DNA from: Escherichia phage vB_EcoM_WFL6982
DNA: 64,000 nt
Sequence record: MK373774.1
Strand: one strand, 5' to 3'
The position numbers and the translations under genes are program-made. The notes below the pieces were generated by a model. It worked only from the letters and a program-made list of their open reading frames with translations, made no database searches and was not told where the DNA came from. Numbering within the stretch: the stretch's first letter is position 1; the number at the start of each line of letters is the position of its first letter. Positions 3,959 to 37,366 of the stretch are shown in pieces.

Positions 3959-4375
3959 TTATGCAGCAACCATCTGCTTTTTAATAGCTTCAGGCAGTGA
4001 TTCAATATATTCTGGAATTTTAGAAGCAACAATTTCGCCAGCTGCAATTAGTTGTTCGTCGGCATCAACACAGTAGAAATCTTCCAGACGCTCAGAACCG
4101 TCTTTATCAAGAACGATTTTTGCGCCAGCTTCAATAGAATCTTTATAGTGCTTACGCATCAGATGAATCCACATATCAGATACATCGTTATCAATAAAAC
4201 CATAAATCATAAAACGAGTTTCTTGCGGCAAAGATTGGAGTTTTTTAGCACTTGCGTCATCACAATGCAGGACCCATGCTTTACGAACACGATTATGGTT
4301 ATGTGGGTTAGCGTCAGTACGGATAGAAGTAACTTTCAGATCAGCAGCAGTGAAACCTTTAGCAGTAGTAAACAT
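3959..4375 (-). CDS. rpbA: Putative RNA polymerase binding protein RpbA
   Basis: 138-aa ORF at the T4 rpbA position between genes 45 and 46; assignment by synteny and size only. Confidence 0.5.
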   Translation of the reverse strand: MFTTAKGFTAADLKVTSIRTDANPHNHNRVRKAWVLHCDDASAKKLQSLPQETRFMIYGFIDNDVSDMWIHLMRKHYKDSIEAGAKIVLDKDGSERLEDFYCVDADEQLIAAGEIVASKIPEYIESLPEAIKKQMVAA

Positions 4376-4387
4376 ATTATTTCTCTC

Positions 4388-4588
4388 TTATTCGTAGAAG
4401 TCGGTAACTGTCCATGCAGAATTGCGATTAGACATTATTTTATTATACTCATCTTTAAAAGCAGATTTGAGCATTTGTTCAGTAACAATATGTTCTTCAC
4501 CTGAAAACGTATTGGTCAAAACATATTTTTTAATTTCAGGGACAACGAGAAGATGTTGTCCAGTTGAATACTCCATGTTGTTCTCCAT
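4388..4588 (-). CDS. Hypothetical protein (T4 45.2 position)
   Basis: 66-aa ORF between rpbA and gene 46. Confidence 0.4.
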   Translation of the reverse strand: MENNMEYSTGQHLLVVPEIKKYVLTNTFSGEEHIVTEQMLKSAFKDEYNKIMSNRNSAWTVTDFYE

Positions 4589-4630
4589 TTAATTTGATGT
4601 GGTCATTATAACCACATCGTGTTAAAGCGT

Positions 4631-6319
4631 TTATGAAACAGTCATTACTGTAAATCGTCCAACTTTGCTCATCTGAAGATGTTGTCCATAAGCTTGTGGG
4701 TCATGGTCTCTGTGACTAATTATAAACACGTTTGCATCGGTTAGAGAGTTAAGAATTGTTGAAATAGCTTTAATACCTTCAGAATCAGTCGCGGAATCCA
4801 TGACTTCGTCCATAATTAATGTATTGATTCTAACACCAGAGACCTTTTCAGCAATATCTCGCCATGTAAACAACAACGCGATATCGATACGTGCTTTTTC
4901 ACCTTGACTAAATGAAGCATAACTGAACTCTTCACGGCCACGTGATTTTATAGATTCATTGAATTCTTCGTCAATAGAAAACACGTAATCAGCTTCCATG
5001 ATTTTAAGATAATGGTTAATCTGCTTGTTGAACAGAGGCACATATTTTTTAATGATAGCACCTTTAATACCAGAATCTTTTAACATATCTGTGATAATAC
5101 CACGATGGTATTTTTCAAGAACGATATCTGATTTTGTTTTAATGATTTTATCAAGTTCTTTTTGAAGCAAAGCTATCTCATCGGCATGGTCGATAAATTC
5201 TGCTGAGGCTTGCTCTATTGCAGCTTTAACTTTCTTAGCTTTATCAATAGTGGCAATCATTGCTTGTTTCTTGGTACGAATATCAGATGCAAGGTCCTGC
5301 TTAGTCTTAACATTAGCTCTATATTCATCAACTAGGACACTCAGATTATCTCTGTGACAGGTAAGTTGCTCGAATGAGTGATTACATTCATGAAGCTTAT
5401 CGGTAATCTTAGAGACAATAGGGTCACCCTGGTGCAATTGTGATGCACAAGTAGGACATGTGCCACCGTCATGATACATCTTAATAACTTTGTTATATGA
5501 GTCGATTTTAGATTTAATCAAGAATGCTTCTTGTCCTATCTTGTTGAATGCCTCAGTAGGGTCTTCATCAAGAACGATATTAAGTAGTCGCTCATTAGCT
5601 TCTTCGATTTCTGCTTTTAATGAACGAGCTTCTTTGGCTAGGTCGTCATACATATTCTGTAGACGCGCTACATTATCACCAGATAATTTCTTTTGACGTT
5701 CGATATTCTCGTTATAAATCTTAATTTGTTGGATAATACCATCTTTCTTGGCATCAAGAACTTGTCCCTGAGAATTAAGTTCGCGAACTTGAGACTTATT
5801 GATTTTATCCATTTCAGCGAGTGTGCCGACTTCTAAAAGGTCTTCGACAAGTTTTCTACGAGCAGGGGTGCTAAGAGCCATGAAAGGGGTATACCCTGCC
5901 GTCCCAAGCACAACGATTTGTTTAAAAGACGCGTATGACATTCCGATGCTACGTTCAAATTCTTCTTGGAAGTCACGACTGCTGGCAGATTCATCGAGAC
6001 GAACACCGTCAACGGAGATTTCGAAAATATTGGGCTTTTGGCCACGTTTAATGAAGTATTTTTTATCATCGAATTCCATCCAAAGCTCAACTAAGAGCTC
6101 TTTCTTGTTCGTGCTATTAATGATTTGTCCTTTCTTAACATCACGAAATGGTTTACCGAAAAGTCCGAAAGTAATGGCTTCTAACATCGTAGATTTACCA
6201 CCGCCATTTTTACCTGTGATTAAGGTCTTTTGGACTTTATCTAATTGGATATCGATAAAATTTTGCCCAACAGACATTATATTTTTATAACGAACACGAT
6301 TTAATTTAAATGATTTCAT
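4631..6319 (-). CDS. 46: Recombination endonuclease subunit gp46 (SbcC/Rad50-like ATPase)
   Basis: 562 aa; N-terminal Walker A GKNGGGKST, long coiled-coil middle with CPTC zinc hook, C-terminal signature/Walker B LIMDEV; T4 gp46-like. Confidence 0.95.
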   Translation of the reverse strand: MKSFKLNRVRYKNIMSVGQNFIDIQLDKVQKTLITGKNGGGKSTMLEAITFGLFGKPFRDVKKGQIINSTNKKELLVELWMEFDDKKYFIKRGQKPNIFEISVDGVRLDESASSRDFQEEFERSIGMSYASFKQIVVLGTAGYTPFMALSTPARRKLVEDLLEVGTLAEMDKINKSQVRELNSQGQVLDAKKDGIIQQIKIYNENIERQKKLSGDNVARLQNMYDDLAKEARSLKAEIEEANERLLNIVLDEDPTEAFNKIGQEAFLIKSKIDSYNKVIKMYHDGGTCPTCASQLHQGDPIVSKITDKLHECNHSFEQLTCHRDNLSVLVDEYRANVKTKQDLASDIRTKKQAMIATIDKAKKVKAAIEQASAEFIDHADEIALLQKELDKIIKTKSDIVLEKYHRGIITDMLKDSGIKGAIIKKYVPLFNKQINHYLKIMEADYVFSIDEEFNESIKSRGREEFSYASFSQGEKARIDIALLFTWRDIAEKVSGVRINTLIMDEVMDSATDSEGIKAISTILNSLTDANVFIISHRDHDPQAYGQHLQMSKVGRFTVMTVS

Positions 6320-33157: not shown

Positions 33158-34114
33158 TTATTTGAAAGGTTTTACCATATGAAAGTTTTGTTTGAAACGC
33201 TTGACGTAATCGTCGTGTCCTAAGCTTTGGTACATACTTACTACTTTGCTATAATTTTCCCAAGCGAACTCACGGAACCATCCTGATGTGATTGATGTAC
33301 AGACCTTTTCAAGGGCCATCATAAAACTATCACGTGGATGGATTTTAAAGTCGTTAGGAATCTGTGAACGTTCAAGAGCTAATACACAAGCTTCTTCATA
33401 TACACCGGCTAATTTAACCATTTCTGGTAATGATTCGAACTTCTCGCGTGATGTCATAACTTCTGAGCCTTCTTTCATATAAAACTTATAAGCAGGCTGG
33501 TCAGTTAGTGCAATGGCTTCATGGATAGTATCATGGTCATACGTATAGATGTCATCTTTAAAGAACGCACTTTTAGAAGTGTCAAGAACTGGGTGAGCAT
33601 AATTCAAGGTTTCTTTCTGGCGTTTCAGCATAATTTCAGTAAGTTCATCGTTCAGTGTAACACCTTTACCACGAAGATACTGAATATGGTTCATAGTCTT
33701 TAAAAAGAATGGATTATTTTTCTTGAAACGATGAGACATCTTAATTGCAAGACATATCTCAGGAGTTGCCCAGTAAAACCCGTTCAAACGGTCTTTAGTC
33801 AAATTTTTCTTGGCGTATTTTAAAAGGTCATAAGAAGACGTGAAATCTTCAGGAGTGAGTTCACCGACTAATTCACGGACATTAGTGATTGCCGGAACAA
33901 TATATGCTTCAAAATGAGTTTCGCGTCCATTATGGAAGCATTTGAAAACTTGGACATCAGGGTTATCTTGGTGAACATATACACCCATCATTTGATTTTT
34001 GAATGTATTCCAAGAACCTTGGTCCGCAATAAAGTCCCAATCACTATTTTTAATAGCGCTAGAATCAATAAGACCGTGATAGTGAAGTGCACGAGAACCA
34101 ATAACTAACATCAT
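33158..34114 (-). CDS. Hypothetical protein (318 aa), weak nucleotidyltransferase-like N-terminal motif
   Basis: N-terminal LVIGSRALHYHGLIDSSAIKNSDWDF loosely resembles a GS...DxD NTase signature with atypical spacing; otherwise unrecognised. Confidence 0.45.
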   Translation of the reverse strand: MMLVIGSRALHYHGLIDSSAIKNSDWDFIADQGSWNTFKNQMMGVYVHQDNPDVQVFKCFHNGRETHFEAYIVPAITNVRELVGELTPEDFTSSYDLLKYAKKNLTKDRLNGFYWATPEICLAIKMSHRFKKNNPFFLKTMNHIQYLRGKGVTLNDELTEIMLKRQKETLNYAHPVLDTSKSAFFKDDIYTYDHDTIHEAIALTDQPAYKFYMKEGSEVMTSREKFESLPEMVKLAGVYEEACVLALERSQIPNDFKIHPRDSFMMALEKVCTSITSGWFREFAWENYSKVVSMYQSLGHDDYVKRFKQNFHMVKPFK

Positions 34115-34142: not shown

Positions 34143-34394
34143 TTAAATTTCACGACATGCGATATTATATTCATCCCAGAGGTCATCATGTGAAGCCTCT
34201 ACCAATGGAACGATTGTACCGTTTATGTCTTCATTATAAGGGCAAATTGTACAGTGCGCATCTTCGAATCGGATGCCTTTGTGTTCAGATTTTTTATAAC
34301 GCATATCGAATATCTTTGCAAACTTTTCACGAGTAATGGTTTTACCAACCACTTTGGTTCCGATACTTTCGTAATAAATCATTGTGGACTCCAT
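34143..34394 (-). CDS. Hypothetical protein (83 aa)
   Basis: Track ORF; ATG start downstream of an early promoter. Confidence 0.45.
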   Translation of the reverse strand: MESTMIYYESIGTKVVGKTITREKFAKIFDMRYKKSEHKGIRFEDAHCTICPYNEDINGTIVPLVEASHDDLWDEYNIACREI

Positions 34395-34444: not shown

Positions 34445-34642
34445 TTAGCAAGAATAACTAGATGATACCCAGCCTTGAACAGTGATACTATTGTGGGATA
34501 ATGAGATCGCGTCCTGGAGATTCAGACCTGCGTTATCTTCAATCCATAATGTAACTTCTTCGCGTTCTTCTGTTGCAATTTGGAACAGGTTTTCCAGAGC
34601 AGCTACTGTCGTACGTACAGCACAATCTAATTCACGAGACAT
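34445..34642 (-). CDS. Small protein, member 3 of the WVxSSxxC family (65 aa)
   Basis: Ends ...ITVQGWVSSSYSC; AAGGAAACAAT-ATG ribosome-site spacing shared with the two upstream paralogs. Confidence 0.5.
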   Translation of the reverse strand: MSRELDCAVRTTVAALENLFQIATEEREEVTLWIEDNAGLNLQDAISLSHNSITVQGWVSSSYSC

Positions 34643-34651
34643 ATTGTTTCC

Positions 34652-34924
34652 TTAGCAAGTGTGAGAAGATGCGACCCAACCACCAGTTTCGAGGCTCAGG
34701 TTGTAGTCGTATTGGTAAACGTCAGCCCATTCAGCATAGCCGTTTTTTGTACAACGTTCAAGATCGGCTTTAAGATGTCCGGGTGAATGATAGGTTCCAC
34801 CCATACCATAAGCTGGATACAAGACGAATGTTGTGTTTTGTTTATCAGCAATTTCTTTGGCAGCCTCAATAGCTGCATAAATTTTTGCTACAGCTTCAGC
34901 CAGTTCGGTTTGTTCTTTAGACAT
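34652..34924 (-). CDS. Small protein, member 2 of the WVxSSxxC family (90 aa)
   Basis: Ends ...ETGGWVASSHTC; shares a YGxGxTYxxPG block with member 1. Confidence 0.5.
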   Translation of the reverse strand: MSKEQTELAEAVAKIYAAIEAAKEIADKQNTTFVLYPAYGMGGTYHSPGHLKADLERCTKNGYAEWADVYQYDYNLSLETGGWVASSHTC

Positions 34925-34933
34925 AATGATTCC

Positions 34934-35239
34934 TTAGCACAACGCAGAAGACGAAACCCAAGCACCTTCAGTAATAACGTAACCATTACCTTCACGCTTA
35001 ACATCGCCACCATTATTTTCAATTTCATCTTTCATCCACTGGGATACGATTTCACCCTTAGGATAATAAGTACGACCGCTACCATAATCACCTACAGAAA
35101 ATGATACGGCATATTGGTCTGCGATCTTTGTTGCTTCTTCTTCGATACGTTCAGCTTGATTCAGAAGTTTATAAATTGCATCTGAAGCGGATTTGGCATC
35201 ATTAAACTCTGGTACTTTAATTTCAATAATCTTACTCAT
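34934..35239 (-). CDS. Small protein, member 1 of the WVxSSxxC family (101 aa)
   Basis: Ends ...TEGAWVSSSALC; start overlaps the upstream membrane ORF stop. Confidence 0.5.
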   Translation of the reverse strand: MSKIIEIKVPEFNDAKSASDAIYKLLNQAERIEEEATKIADQYAVSFSVGDYGSGRTYYPKGEIVSQWMKDEIENNGGDVKREGNGYVITEGAWVSSSALC

Positions 35240-35595
35240 TTTCTACATTCCTTAATAAAGTTTTCGATTGTTTCATTTTCACGTCTAGCTAGGAGTTCAT
35301 TATAACTAATCATTTGAGAAGCGTAAACCTTTTTATTTTTCTTGTTATGGTTTATAAAATCGTAGTAAAAATAGACTACAGTACAAAAGGATGCGATGGA
35401 TGCAAAGGCTTGGGTATACCGTAAGTCCTGCCATTGGTCTGTGAATCCACCAGTGTTCCCTATAAATCCTAACACAACGCCATCAATAAGAAATCCAACT
35501 AATCCAAAGGCAAATCCCATGCCGGCGCTCATGATAAAAATTAAAATATTCTCACCAAGAGAAGGCCATACGGTTAAGAGTTGAGGCTTTTGCAT
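35236..35595 (-). CDS. Membrane protein (119 aa)
   Basis: Hydrophobic helices ILIFIMSAGMGFAFGLVGFLIDGVVLGFIG and AFASIASFCTVVYFYY. Confidence 0.5.
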   Translation of the reverse strand: MQKPQLLTVWPSLGENILIFIMSAGMGFAFGLVGFLIDGVVLGFIGNTGGFTDQWQDLRYTQAFASIASFCTVVYFYYDFINHNKKNKKVYASQMISYNELLARRENETIENFIKECRK

Positions 35596-35933
35596 CTTAT
35601 TTCCTTAACGAATTCCATAGCTTCTTCATATTCATACTTTTTAACAGCTTCATCATACTGAGCTTGGGCTTTTGCGCACTGAACTTTCCACTCGCGAACT
35701 CGAGCTCTGTGATGACGGCCTTGGTGCCAATATCCTGCCCAATTAATAGGCATTAATAAAAATGGTACAATAAGTGGGGCGACGAACATTAATGAAAATG
35801 CTGCATCAGACGATATAACTTTACTAGAATCTAAAACAGCTCCTATAATCATAAAGATTAAAAATGCTAAAGCTAAAATAGGGCCAAATAGTACTTCGTT
35901 TGGGATTAATTTACGTTTGTATTCGTATGCCAA
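35574..35933 (-). CDS. Membrane protein (up to 119 aa; start uncertain)
   Basis: Track ORF begins with TTG inside the U-run of the upstream terminator; first in-frame ATG is at residue 28 with no SD. Hydrophobic helices and a basic HQGRHHRARVREWK segment. Confidence 0.4.
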   Translation of the reverse strand: MAYEYKRKLIPNEVLFGPILALAFLIFMIIGAVLDSSKVISSDAAFSLMFVAPLIVPFLLMPINWAGYWHQGRHHRARVREWKVQCAKAQAQYDEAVKKYEYEEAMEFVKEIRCKSLNS

Positions 35934-35959
35934 AAAGCCCCAACCTTTCGGAAGGGGCT
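35931..35959 (-). terminator. Rho-independent terminator (GC-rich stem, GNRA loop, U5)
   Basis: Minus strand AGCCCC-TT-CC-GAAA-GG-TT-GGGGCT followed by TTTTTG, ~50 nt downstream of the tRNA-like element. Approximate coordinates. Confidence 0.6.
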
Positions 35960-36010
35960 ATGCCTTGCGGCAACCTTGTCGGGGTTCCACCTGCTAAGGC
36001 AAGTGTTTGT

Positions 36011-36102
36011 ACGAAACGCCGGGATTTGAACCCGGTTATTAAGTAGTTGACGCTACTCAATATTTTTAAAAGGCCATATCTCGACCATATCCGAACGTTC
36101 CG
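36011..36102 (-). ncRNA. tRNA-like RNA element (canonical T-arm and 7-bp acceptor stem, no canonical anticodon arm)
   Basis: Minus strand has T-arm CCGGG-TTCAAAT-CCCGG, then 3' acceptor CGTTTCG pairing with 5' CGGAACG 92 nt upstream; the interior cannot be folded into a standard D/anticodon cloverleaf. Approximate coordinates. Confidence 0.4.
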
Positions 36103-36270
36103 TCAAAAACGCTACTCGGCTTACGGCAAAGATATTTCCTCGAATCGATAATTCTGTGCGCCGTTTCTGCTGTGATGTAAGGGGATATTAACAAATCGTA
36201 AAGATTTATTAAGACCAGTCCTTACTCAGGGAACATCAGTCCGACGACTTACCGGTAGCGACCCGGCTTC

Positions 36271-36666
36271 TTATTTTGACATATCATCAATTTGCTCTCG
36301 ACGCCGACGCCATAGATTAATCGCTTCATTAACACATTCGGCGTTTGGTATATGACGGCAATAATATAATGATTCGCGTTTCTGGAACCGATGTTGCAAC
36401 GGGATTTCGTTTAAAAGGTCTTTACGGTCAAAGTATTCAAAACTAGTTAACCCAGAACGATTTTTAAGAAACTTCCAATGTCCGAATTCATTTTGAAAAT
36501 AGACATAATCAGCATGCTGATACAGCGAATTAATTAACCTATCGGAAATAACTGTTTCACGTTCGTTAAAATAAAATGTTAAGTCATGAACTACCAGATA
36601 AATATTGCCTTTCATATTTTCCTCACTTAAAGTTGGTGCCTCTAGAAAGATTTGAACTCTCACCAT
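36271..36666 (-). CDS. Hypothetical protein (131 aa)
   Basis: Track ORF; start may be the internal ATG (MKGNIYLVVHDL...). Confidence 0.45.
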   Translation of the reverse strand: MVRVQIFLEAPTLSEENMKGNIYLVVHDLTFYFNERETVISDRLINSLYQHADYVYFQNEFGHWKFLKNRSGLTSFEYFDRKDLLNEIPLQHRFQKRESLYYCRHIPNAECVNEAINLWRRRREQIDDMSK

Positions 36667-36694
36667 TAACCTTAGAATGATTATATGCTATCCA

Positions 36695-37366
36695 TTACAC
36701 TATAGAGGCAATTAAATTATTTACAATATCTTCTTTATAAACTTCAGCATAATGAAGTTCATATATTTCCCATCCTAATGATTTTATAATATCATGGCGT
36801 TCTTTATAATAAGGGGCCAAAATCTTTTTCTTAGGATTGGAGTAATGTTGGTTTCCATTAACTTCAATAATAATCTTTTTATCTATTAAAGCAATATCCG
36901 TGCAATACGCTCGGTTTTTAACCGGTTGGTATTCTTCAATAAATGAAATTCCATTTTCTATTAATTTAGATTTCAAAAATTCACAAGGCACAGATTTAAA
37001 TTTTGTATTTTTCTTCCAAGGATGTTTATCGGGGTTTTCATTCAACCATTTTTTCCGAGCATTAGATATTTTTATTCTAGCTTCCTCAGAGTGTTCTCTA
37101 CCTAATGAAGCGGCTGACAATTTTTGTCTAGTCTCTTCCGAAATTACTACAGGAACACCAGTCTTTTTAGATACAACATACTGGTTTAAATTACCTGAAG
37201 CTATACGTGCTTTATTCATTGCTGCAATGGCTGATTTAGAACTTTCTTTATACAATTCCAATTTAGGGTTGGATTTACACCATCTAGTGTGGTTAGCCAT
37301 CCATCCTTTAGGTTTATTAGAAATATCAAATTCCATATTACAATGTTTACAAATGCTCATTACCAA
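36695..37366 (-). CDS. Putative endonuclease: N-terminal zinc ribbon plus C-terminal DUF559/Vsr-like nuclease domain
   Basis: N-terminal CKHC...HTRWC; C-terminal DIALIDKKIIIEVNGNQHY...RHDIIKSLGWEIYEL fits the D...EhxG.QH...R...GW pattern of DUF559-type nucleases. Lies next to the tRNA genes. Confidence 0.45.
   Translation of the reverse strand: MVMSICKHCNMEFDISNKPKGWMANHTRWCKSNPKLELYKESSKSAIAAMNKARIASGNLNQYVVSKKTGVPVVISEETRQKLSAASLGREHSEEARIKISNARKKWLNENPDKHPWKKNTKFKSVPCEFLKSKLIENGISFIEEYQPVKNRAYCTDIALIDKKIIIEVNGNQHYSNPKKKILAPYYKERHDIIKSLGWEIYELHYAEVYKEDIVNNLIASIV

Follow-up and report, generated by a model that had tools for sequence, protein, structure and literature searches.

This report concerns a 64,000-nucleotide window of DNA from Escherichia phage vB_EcoM_WFL6982 (MK373774.1) and, within it, three consecutive minus-strand genes for small proteins of 101, 90 and 65 amino acids (aa) that share one C-terminal tail. 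These tail genes and a nucleotidyltransferase-like gene located downstream of them form a conserved two-component module. Judged from their sequences, the three genes are paralogues in a family of small, soluble and acidic proteins that is restricted to phages, and conservation across that family supports the C-terminal tail as its conserved functional element. The partner gene encodes an active-looking nucleotidyltransferase of the Pol-beta superfamily, composed of a DUF7277 catalytic lobe and a DUF7275 helical lobe. The explanation that we favour, at less than even confidence, is that the small proteins are substrates, with the invariant serine pair or the terminal cysteine of the tail being nucleotidylated by the partner enzyme.

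The Tail Genes and Their Partner

The window is 100% identical to Escherichia phage vB_EcoM_WFK (MK373775.1; Mosigvirus, RB69-like), and all genes of the region are named merely “hypothetical protein” in the WFK record. The elements of the module are located as follows.

34934-35239, minus strand: tail gene 1, 101 aa, RB69ORF139c-like, phrog_899; N-terminal helix, YGSGRTYYP hairpin, small beta-sheet and tail AWVSSSALC
34652-34924, minus strand: tail gene 2, 90 aa, phrog_899; helix, YGMGGTYHSPG and tail GWVASSHTC
34445-34642, minus strand: tail gene 3, 65 aa, RB69ORF136c-like, phrog_4882; helix and tail GWVSSSYSC, without the glycine-rich hairpin
34937-34960, minus strand: tail motif of gene 1, W94-C101 (W-V-S-S-S-A-L-C)
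34655-34678, minus strand: tail motif of gene 2, W83-C90 (W-V-A-S-S-H-T-C)
34448-34471, minus strand: tail motif of gene 3, W58-C65 (W-V-S-S-S-Y-S-C)
33158-34114, minus strand: conserved partner, 318 aa, DUF7277 and DUF7275; nucleotidyltransferase fold with invariant G6, S7, D25, D27 and E69

The 101-, 90- and 65-aa proteins begin with MSKIIEIK, MSKEQTEL and MSRELDCA, respectively, and have the common ending G-x-W-V-[S/A]-S-S-x-x-C, followed directly by the stop codon. A preliminary description of this DNA had reported three tandem minus-strand open reading frames (ORFs) with MSK/MSR starts, a terminal cysteine and the ends EGAWVSSSALC, TGGWVASSHTC and QGWVSSSYSC; the coordinates and ends were verified. 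The tail codons vary synonymously among the three genes (Val as GTT, GTC or GTA; Ser as TCT or AGT), and thus the motif is kept at the protein level and is no DNA repeat, as had been proposed. Pairwise BLASTP detects the relationship between the paralogues (E 1e-4 and 4e-4), in agreement with the suggestion of a duplicated cassette of one protein family. Two other points of that description hold in part. The ribosome-binding arrangement claimed for all three genes, AAGGAA-N4-5-ATG, is found as AAGGAA-N5-ATG at the 90- and 65-aa genes, but the 101-aa gene has an 8-nt spacer. The glycine-rich block said to be shared by the first two proteins is present in both, but shifted by one residue (YGSGRTYYPKG vs YGMGGTYHSPG).

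The ATG of the 101-aa gene overlaps the stop codon of the membrane ORF upstream (ATGA), and the stop codons of tail genes 1 and 2 sit within the Shine–Dalgarno sequence of the gene that follows (TGC-TAA-GGAA-N5-ATG). Compared with the orthologues of JS98 and Klebsiella phage PhiKpNIH-6, the ratio of nonsynonymous to synonymous substitution rates is 0.14-0.43 for the tail genes, which marks them as real coding genes under selection, and 0.07 for the enzyme gene.

The 101- and 90-aa proteins match phrog_899 (E 1.3e-22 and 2.2e-18, respectively) and the 65-aa protein matches phrog_4882 (E 7.9e-36). Both PHROGs are labelled “unknown function”, and the small proteins have no family in Pfam, NCBIfam or PADLOC. 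Searching the PDB by sequence gave just chance helical or low-complexity matches; Phi92_gp137, a weak PDB match (E 0.13), was absent again from the profile searches and was rejected. The AlphaFold2 (AF2) model of the 101-aa protein predicts a folded domain, with a predicted local distance difference test score of 89, and the alpha+beta fold of the small protein had no match in a PDB structure search. The capsid-targeting N-terminus of the T4 internal proteins (IPI-III; MKTYQEFIAE type) is found in none of the three tail proteins, and true IP-like ORFs, with MKTYQEF or MKTYKEF starts, form separate clusters in related loci. Literature searches on the names of the RB69 ORFs and of the DUFs, on the motif strings and on the combination of a C-terminal cysteine with a nucleotidyltransferase and a phage gave no relevant paper.

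A Family Defined by Its C-Terminus

The 101-aa protein retrieves 391 phage records by tblastn, including Escherichia, Klebsiella, Enterobacter, Serratia, Aeromonas and other phages. A profile search through 1.84 billion cluster representatives (cut-off E<=1e-3) matched 169 of them, nearly all 65-120 aa in length and aligning to the very end of the profile. The SS-x-x-C ending is present in 136 of the 153 retrieved sequences, three of these with one extra residue. The tail is therefore clearly conserved beyond this genome and in many phage groups, contrary to the lack of conservation that the preliminary description had named as refuting its view.

Cysteine is the terminal residue in 133 of these 136 proteins and the sole cysteine in 76. 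Among the Cys-ended members, tryptophan occupies position -7 in 132 of 133, a position that lay outside the selection criterion; glycine is favoured at -9 and -8, and position -5 is Ser, Ala or Pro. The defining tail can be written as W-x-[S/A/P]-S-S-(x0-2)-Cys and is nearly always found at the extreme C-terminus. In most members, a helix at the N-terminus (…EAExIADE…) is accompanied by a YG(M/S)GGTYYP hairpin and by an acidic linker, and the median isoelectric point (pI) of the family is 4.5. The acidic linker carries extra W-x-S-S copies, with 30 observed vs 2.0 +/- 1.3 in shuffled sequences.

The scaffolds that bear the tail are of several types. Alignment of the 65-aa type with the main family is confined to the tail (hhalign probability 92%). 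A third type, with two W-x-x-S-S-C motifs, one internal and one terminal, occurs in JS98-like phages and in many others. The named members of the family are all phage proteins, for example in Myxococcus phage Mx1. One retrieved protein of 953 aa (P0069) is a helicase with repeated helicase-associated domains and was discarded as a false positive.

There are five tail-bearing genes upstream of the enzyme gene in JS98. Two of them stand out (4281-4499 and 4510-4734 of the JS98 locus): one, ending in GFWFSSSMSC, is missing from the RefSeq annotation, and another (orf126 type) belongs to the third subfamily with its two W-x-x-S-S-C motifs. The RB69 reference orthologue P0002 (RB69ORF139c) has just 71 aa, ends in ...SQWYEK and is without the tail; this reflects either a frameshift in RB69 or an error of sequencing or annotation.

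The Partner Nucleotidyltransferase

Tail gene 3 is followed, at a distance of 330 bp downstream, by the partner gene, which the coordinates of the preliminary description do not reach. Its product passes the Pfam gathering thresholds of both DUF7277 and DUF7275 (264.2 and 95.7 bits; cut-off 27), and both domains are matched by all 40 aligned homologues. G6, S7, D25, D27 and E69 are invariant in this 40-sequence alignment. The signature hG[GS]…[DE]x[DE]…[DE] is that of a Pol-beta-type nucleotidyltransferase, and the protein has the marks of the superfamily fold, namely an alpha-beta-alpha-beta core with hG[GS], followed on the next strands by [DE]x[DE] and a third acidic residue. Within the helical lobe, the invariant residues are H128, K139, R165, E168, Y172, H174, D193-H194-D195, H198, E240-E241, E248-R249, K270, C272 and TSITSG-F-R. 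The enzyme gene is found in 733 phage records, a few of which, from Acinetobacter phages, name it “putative nucleotidyltransferase”.

The best structural match of the partner is MenT1. Its structural relatives, with the value of each match, are given below.

MenT1 toxin: 10.3
TglT/MenT3: 8.8
ANT(2'')-Ia: 8.7
MenT4: 8.0
LnuA: 7.3

The likeness to the MenT proteins is at fold level only, as the DUF1814/AbiEii profile (PF08843) matches none of the 40 partner homologues even at E<=10. The partner has no sequence-level match to any other named family.

In distant homologues of 248-263 aa (Gordonia phage Norvs, Streptomyces phage Wakanda and Vibrio phage KVP40), the central part of the N-terminal lobe is missing, and with it the E69 region. 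The homologues of KVP40 and of the Gordonia and Streptomyces phages also have no tail partners, no C272 and no TSITSGWFRE; C272 is present in homologues that have tail partners and absent where these are missing. In place of tail proteins, the distant homologues show tight translational coupling to another conserved protein, of ~98 aa.

Linkage and Distribution of the Module

The linkage between the two components holds when approached from either side. Sixty-one loci were gathered via the tail proteins and scanned with a hidden Markov model (HMM) of the 318-aa protein. A same-strand enzyme gene lies downstream of the tail genes in 59 of them; in the other two, the contig stops immediately behind the tail genes, giving 59/59 where there is enough flanking sequence. 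Conversely, among 80 loci gathered via the 318-aa protein, HMM-detected tail genes lie <=3.5 kb upstream on the same strand in 71, and tail genes recognized by the motif only are found in 4 more. One enzyme gene is accompanied by 1-6 tail genes. The enzyme gene follows directly after them in several loci (L063, L049 and L061), and five tail genes precede it in L059. Among the clustered same-strand ORFs of these loci, no genes other than the tail families accompany the enzyme gene broadly; all else reflects lineage synteny.

The module is found in varied genomic contexts. The loci gathered via the tail proteins include jumbo-phage contigs of 355-371 kb. Proximity to tRNA genes was rejected as a feature of the module, since it is unconserved: the Aeromonas phages carry the module beside nrdD and not in the e-tRNA region. 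A survey of 185,579 species genomes found just five loci, all on contigs of metagenome-assembled genomes (four of 73-167 kb and one of 2.3 kb) and none from an isolate genome. These five are read as phage sequence, and the module as restricted to phages.

T4 has an unrelated gene, e.2, between e.3 and nudE, and the tail genes with their downstream gene thus represent a cassette absent from T4. Gene e.2 itself was considered as a counterpart of the tail genes and rejected, being unrelated in spite of the same position. Two other neighbours fall outside the core. An 83-aa ORF (phrog_3723; 34143-34394, minus strand) lies between the tail genes and the enzyme gene; it recurs in 12 of the 80 loci and is lineage-specific. 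Some jumbo and rV5-like loci have a lambda-phosphatase-like gene close to the enzyme gene; this gene was rejected as a partner, as it is present in only 15 of the 80 loci and at variable positions.

The Tail as a Candidate Modification Site

The preliminary description had proposed that the tail serves as a recognition tag for processing, modification, sorting or membrane targeting. Of these, modification is still the role that fits best. Nothing speaks for sorting or membrane targeting, as the proteins are acidic and soluble and have no hydrophobic segment. If the small proteins are substrates, the tail would be recognized by the enzyme as a docking or acceptor site and would enter the acceptor site of the enzyme. 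The serine pair, or the terminal cysteine, would then be nucleotidylated, for example AMP- or UMP-ylated, with the serine pair as the probable site. This modification would switch or arm the small proteins early or mid infection.

The substrate explanation is favoured on three grounds. A short invariant motif that sits on divergent scaffolds and is internally repeated behaves like a modification motif. Up to six partners are served by one enzyme gene. Two structural relatives, the antibiotic O-nucleotidyltransferases ANT(2'') and LnuA, act by placing nucleotides on hydroxyl groups of their substrates. In addition, the two-way gene linkage and the correlated absence of tail partners, C272 and TSITSGWFRE from the same homologues were counted in its favour.

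There is precedent for such a pairing. In the type VII toxin–antitoxin HepT–MntA, and in GlnD/PII and GlnE/GS, a Pol-beta-type nucleotidyltransferase covalently nucleotidylates a small, adjacently encoded partner at a conserved residue near a conserved motif. By analogy, the same logic may apply to the enzyme and the tail proteins, with differences in both components. The acceptor in those systems is a tyrosine of the HEPN domain (or of PII), whereas here a serine or cysteine of the C-terminal tail is proposed; the small proteins have no Pfam HEPN match, no Rx4-6H motif and no PDB fold match. The enzyme, at 318 aa, differs in its large, highly conserved helical lobe (DUF7275). ANT(2'')-Ia and LnuA differ in having small-molecule substrates and no dedicated partner proteins, and they are not phage-encoded in this context. 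The nearest known logic is that of a nucleotidyltransferase paired with a small protein, as in MenAT1 and HepT–MntA, but some features that define those families are not found here.

Several observations weigh against nucleotidylation of the tail. Inhibition or regulation of the enzyme would account for the gene linkage just as well, and the closest structural relatives, the MenT proteins, act on the 3′ ends of tRNA, not on proteins. In the AF2 model, the W-V of the tail forms part of a beta-strand, and the motif may thus be partly structural and not exposed. The tails upstream of the enzyme gene in Acinetobacter phage Meroveus (locus 1998-2616) read WSPSSESY, NWSNSES and WYNSSESC; on this evidence the terminal cysteine is dispensable in that lineage, W-x-x-S-S being kept, and is not strictly required. 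Finally, 5 of the 80 enzyme loci have no tail gene within 2.5-5 kb.

A more far-reaching version of the substrate explanation is rather unlikely. It describes a new phage protein-modification system, in which a dedicated nucleotidyltransferase would mark the portable W-x-S-S-x-x-Cys tail of small effectors as Ser-O- or Cys-S-nucleotidyl. The mark might then be followed by elimination and closure of a thioether ring, or by transfer to a target. If true, this would represent a phage-specific tag-and-writer chemistry without a described counterpart.

Alternative Explanations

The strongest rival, possible but clearly behind the substrate explanation, is that the small proteins are antitoxin-like pseudo-substrates. 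They would block the active-site cleft of a MenT-like enzyme that targets RNA, such as the 3′ ends of tRNA. Together, the acidic linker and the Trp/Ser tail would imitate the 3′ end of a nucleic acid and restrain or time the enzyme, with no covalent modification needed. MenT1 is blocked by a 68-aa protein acting at the active site, and the homologues of that protein are mostly encoded upstream of the menT-like gene (PMC10435456). The MenAT/AbiE (DUF1814) arrangement, with the MenT1 toxin directly downstream of a small helical partner, agrees with the present module both in gene order, in which the small genes come first, tightly stacked and on the same strand, and in the acidity of the small proteins (pI ~4.5). 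The tight coupling of the distant enzyme homologues to a different protein of ~98 aa is also in keeping with this explanation. However, one enzyme here has 1-6 paralogous partners, and up to six different partners would be unusual for an antitoxin. These partners have an alpha+beta fold without a PDB match and an invariant W-x-S-S-x-x-Cys tail, which, on divergent scaffolds and with internal repeats, is more in line with a recognition motif than with an inhibitor interface that co-evolves. Furthermore, the module is found in phages only, not on the bacterial chromosomes where such toxin–antitoxin pairs live, and the enzyme does not belong to DUF1814/AbiEii by sequence.

It is improbable that the C-terminus is activated for cross-linking. 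In that case, an activated serine of the tail would undergo elimination and be attacked by the cysteine thiol to give a thioether ring, or the carboxylate would be adenylated and transferred via Cys272; the result would be a cyclized tail or a conjugation tag. The spacings S-(x)-x-x-C, S-x-C and S-C are distances closed by small thioether rings in lanthipeptide and AviCys chemistry, the cysteine is nearly always terminal, and C272 follows the presence of tail partners. There is also a resemblance, and only a resemblance, to the precursors of ribosomally synthesized and post-translationally modified peptides (lanthipeptide/AviCys, e.g., epidermin), in which a Ser-rich stretch lies 1-4 residues before a terminal cysteine and several precursor-like paralogues accompany one enzyme gene. 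The tail proteins differ in being folded proteins of 65-100 aa, as predicted, rather than leader–core peptides, and in having the tail as their most conserved part and not as a variable core. Some tails have no cysteine at all. Among the genes conserved nearby there is no LanB/M/KC/D-type, dehydratase, cyclase, decarboxylase, lyase, E1-like or E2-like gene, but only the nucleotidyltransferase-like gene. There is no known case of a Pol-beta-type nucleotidyltransferase adenylating a carboxylate. A comparison with ubiquitin-like or Pup-like tags fails on both components, as the tails end in Cys and not in Gly-Gly (or GGQ/E), and the fold of the partner is that of a nucleotidyltransferase and is neither E1/ThiF nor glutamine-synthetase-like.

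The possibility that the two components are independent neighbours, with a structural or metal- or partner-binding tail in host-takeover proteins (e.g., inhibitors of host proteins) and an adjacency due to shared regulation or joint mobility, is similarly improbable and is ranked last owing to the two-way linkage: it would agree with the predicted position of W-V in a beta-strand, with the many early and middle phage genes that encode small acidic inhibitors, and with the variable intervening ORFs, which can put up to ~2 kb between the tail genes and the enzyme gene, but the linkage holds both ways (59/59 and 75/80) across very different phage groups and contexts with no other gene conserved around it, and such conservation of a gene pair is unexpected without functional coupling.

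Upstream Genes, Stable RNA Region and Promoter

The features upstream of the tail genes are as follows.

35236-35595, minus strand: membrane ORF, T4 e.3 homologue; stop overlaps the start of tail gene 1
35574-35933, minus strand: membrane ORF, T4 e.4 homologue; 5′ end replaced, sole start a TTG within the terminator T-run
35932-35958, minus strand: GC-rich hairpin and T5, rnaC/rnaD-region terminator, identified from the sequence and from the “rnaC | terminator” annotation in phage Kha5h
35299-35327, minus strand: promoter-like site TTTACG-17-TATAAT within the 3′ end of e.3, a consensus match; a T4-type middle promoter is annotated there in SA79RD

The two membrane-protein ORFs described previously each have hydrophobic segments, and they are given as T4/RB69 e.3 and e.4 homologues in the notes of a related record. 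A functional tie between them and the tail genes finds no backing in other genomes: the two genes recur in close relatives only, Dhakavirus has no more than a weak e.3 homologue, and neither gene is present in the other lineages. The label “sulfurtransferase”, given to the e.3 homologue in several records (e.g., vB_Eco_F31 2637-2996), is unsupported by any profile and was rejected. The promoter-like site likely drives the tail genes and suggests that they are expressed early or in the middle of infection.

The strong terminator noted earlier is present as a hairpin with T5, and the supposed tRNA-like element beside it is identified as the T-even rnaC/rnaD stable-RNA region (35934-36275, minus strand), which has no Rfam model. 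Two short “hypothetical protein” coding sequences annotated over this region, WFK_00131 and WFK_00132, are probably spurious. The similarity of WFK to other Mosigviruses ends at the start of the e.4 homologue (~35931-35933). The rnaC region lies ~3 kb from e.4 in APCEc01, and e.5 and e.6 lie directly upstream of e.4 in SA79RD; from these arrangements, it seems that e.5 and e.6 were lost from WFK together with their neighbours. Since the sole start of e.4 is the TTG in the terminator T-run, this gene may be poorly expressed or N-terminally truncated here.

Two further ORFs border the tRNA genes. The longest ORF of a 131-aa protein (36271-36666, minus strand) overlaps tRNA-Arg (36634-36709, minus strand) with its first 17 codons. 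Its PHROG match begins at residue 18 and the coding sequence in the record starts at an internal ATG (36615), which is likely the true start. A 223-aa ORF (36695-37366, minus strand), flanked by tRNA genes and occupying the place of segB in T4, shares 15 nt with tRNA-Arg at its 3′ end and has weak NUMOD3, DUF559 and homing-endonuclease matches.

Significance

The module is present in several hundred sequenced phages, including coliphages of the RB69/JS98 groups, which are easy to handle, rV5-like phages, jumbo phages and Myxococcus phage Mx1, and every member is annotated as “hypothetical”. The faithful pairing of one enzyme gene with up to six small proteins of the same tail provides a testable handle on this phage “dark matter” and points to an undescribed module of an enzyme and its tagged proteins. 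If the tail is nucleotidylated or further processed, this would be a new kind of protein modification in phage–host biology, carried out by a compact tag-and-enzyme pair. If the small proteins instead restrain a MenT-like RNA-tailing enzyme, this would be the first case of lytic phages themselves using a toxin-like system of this kind.

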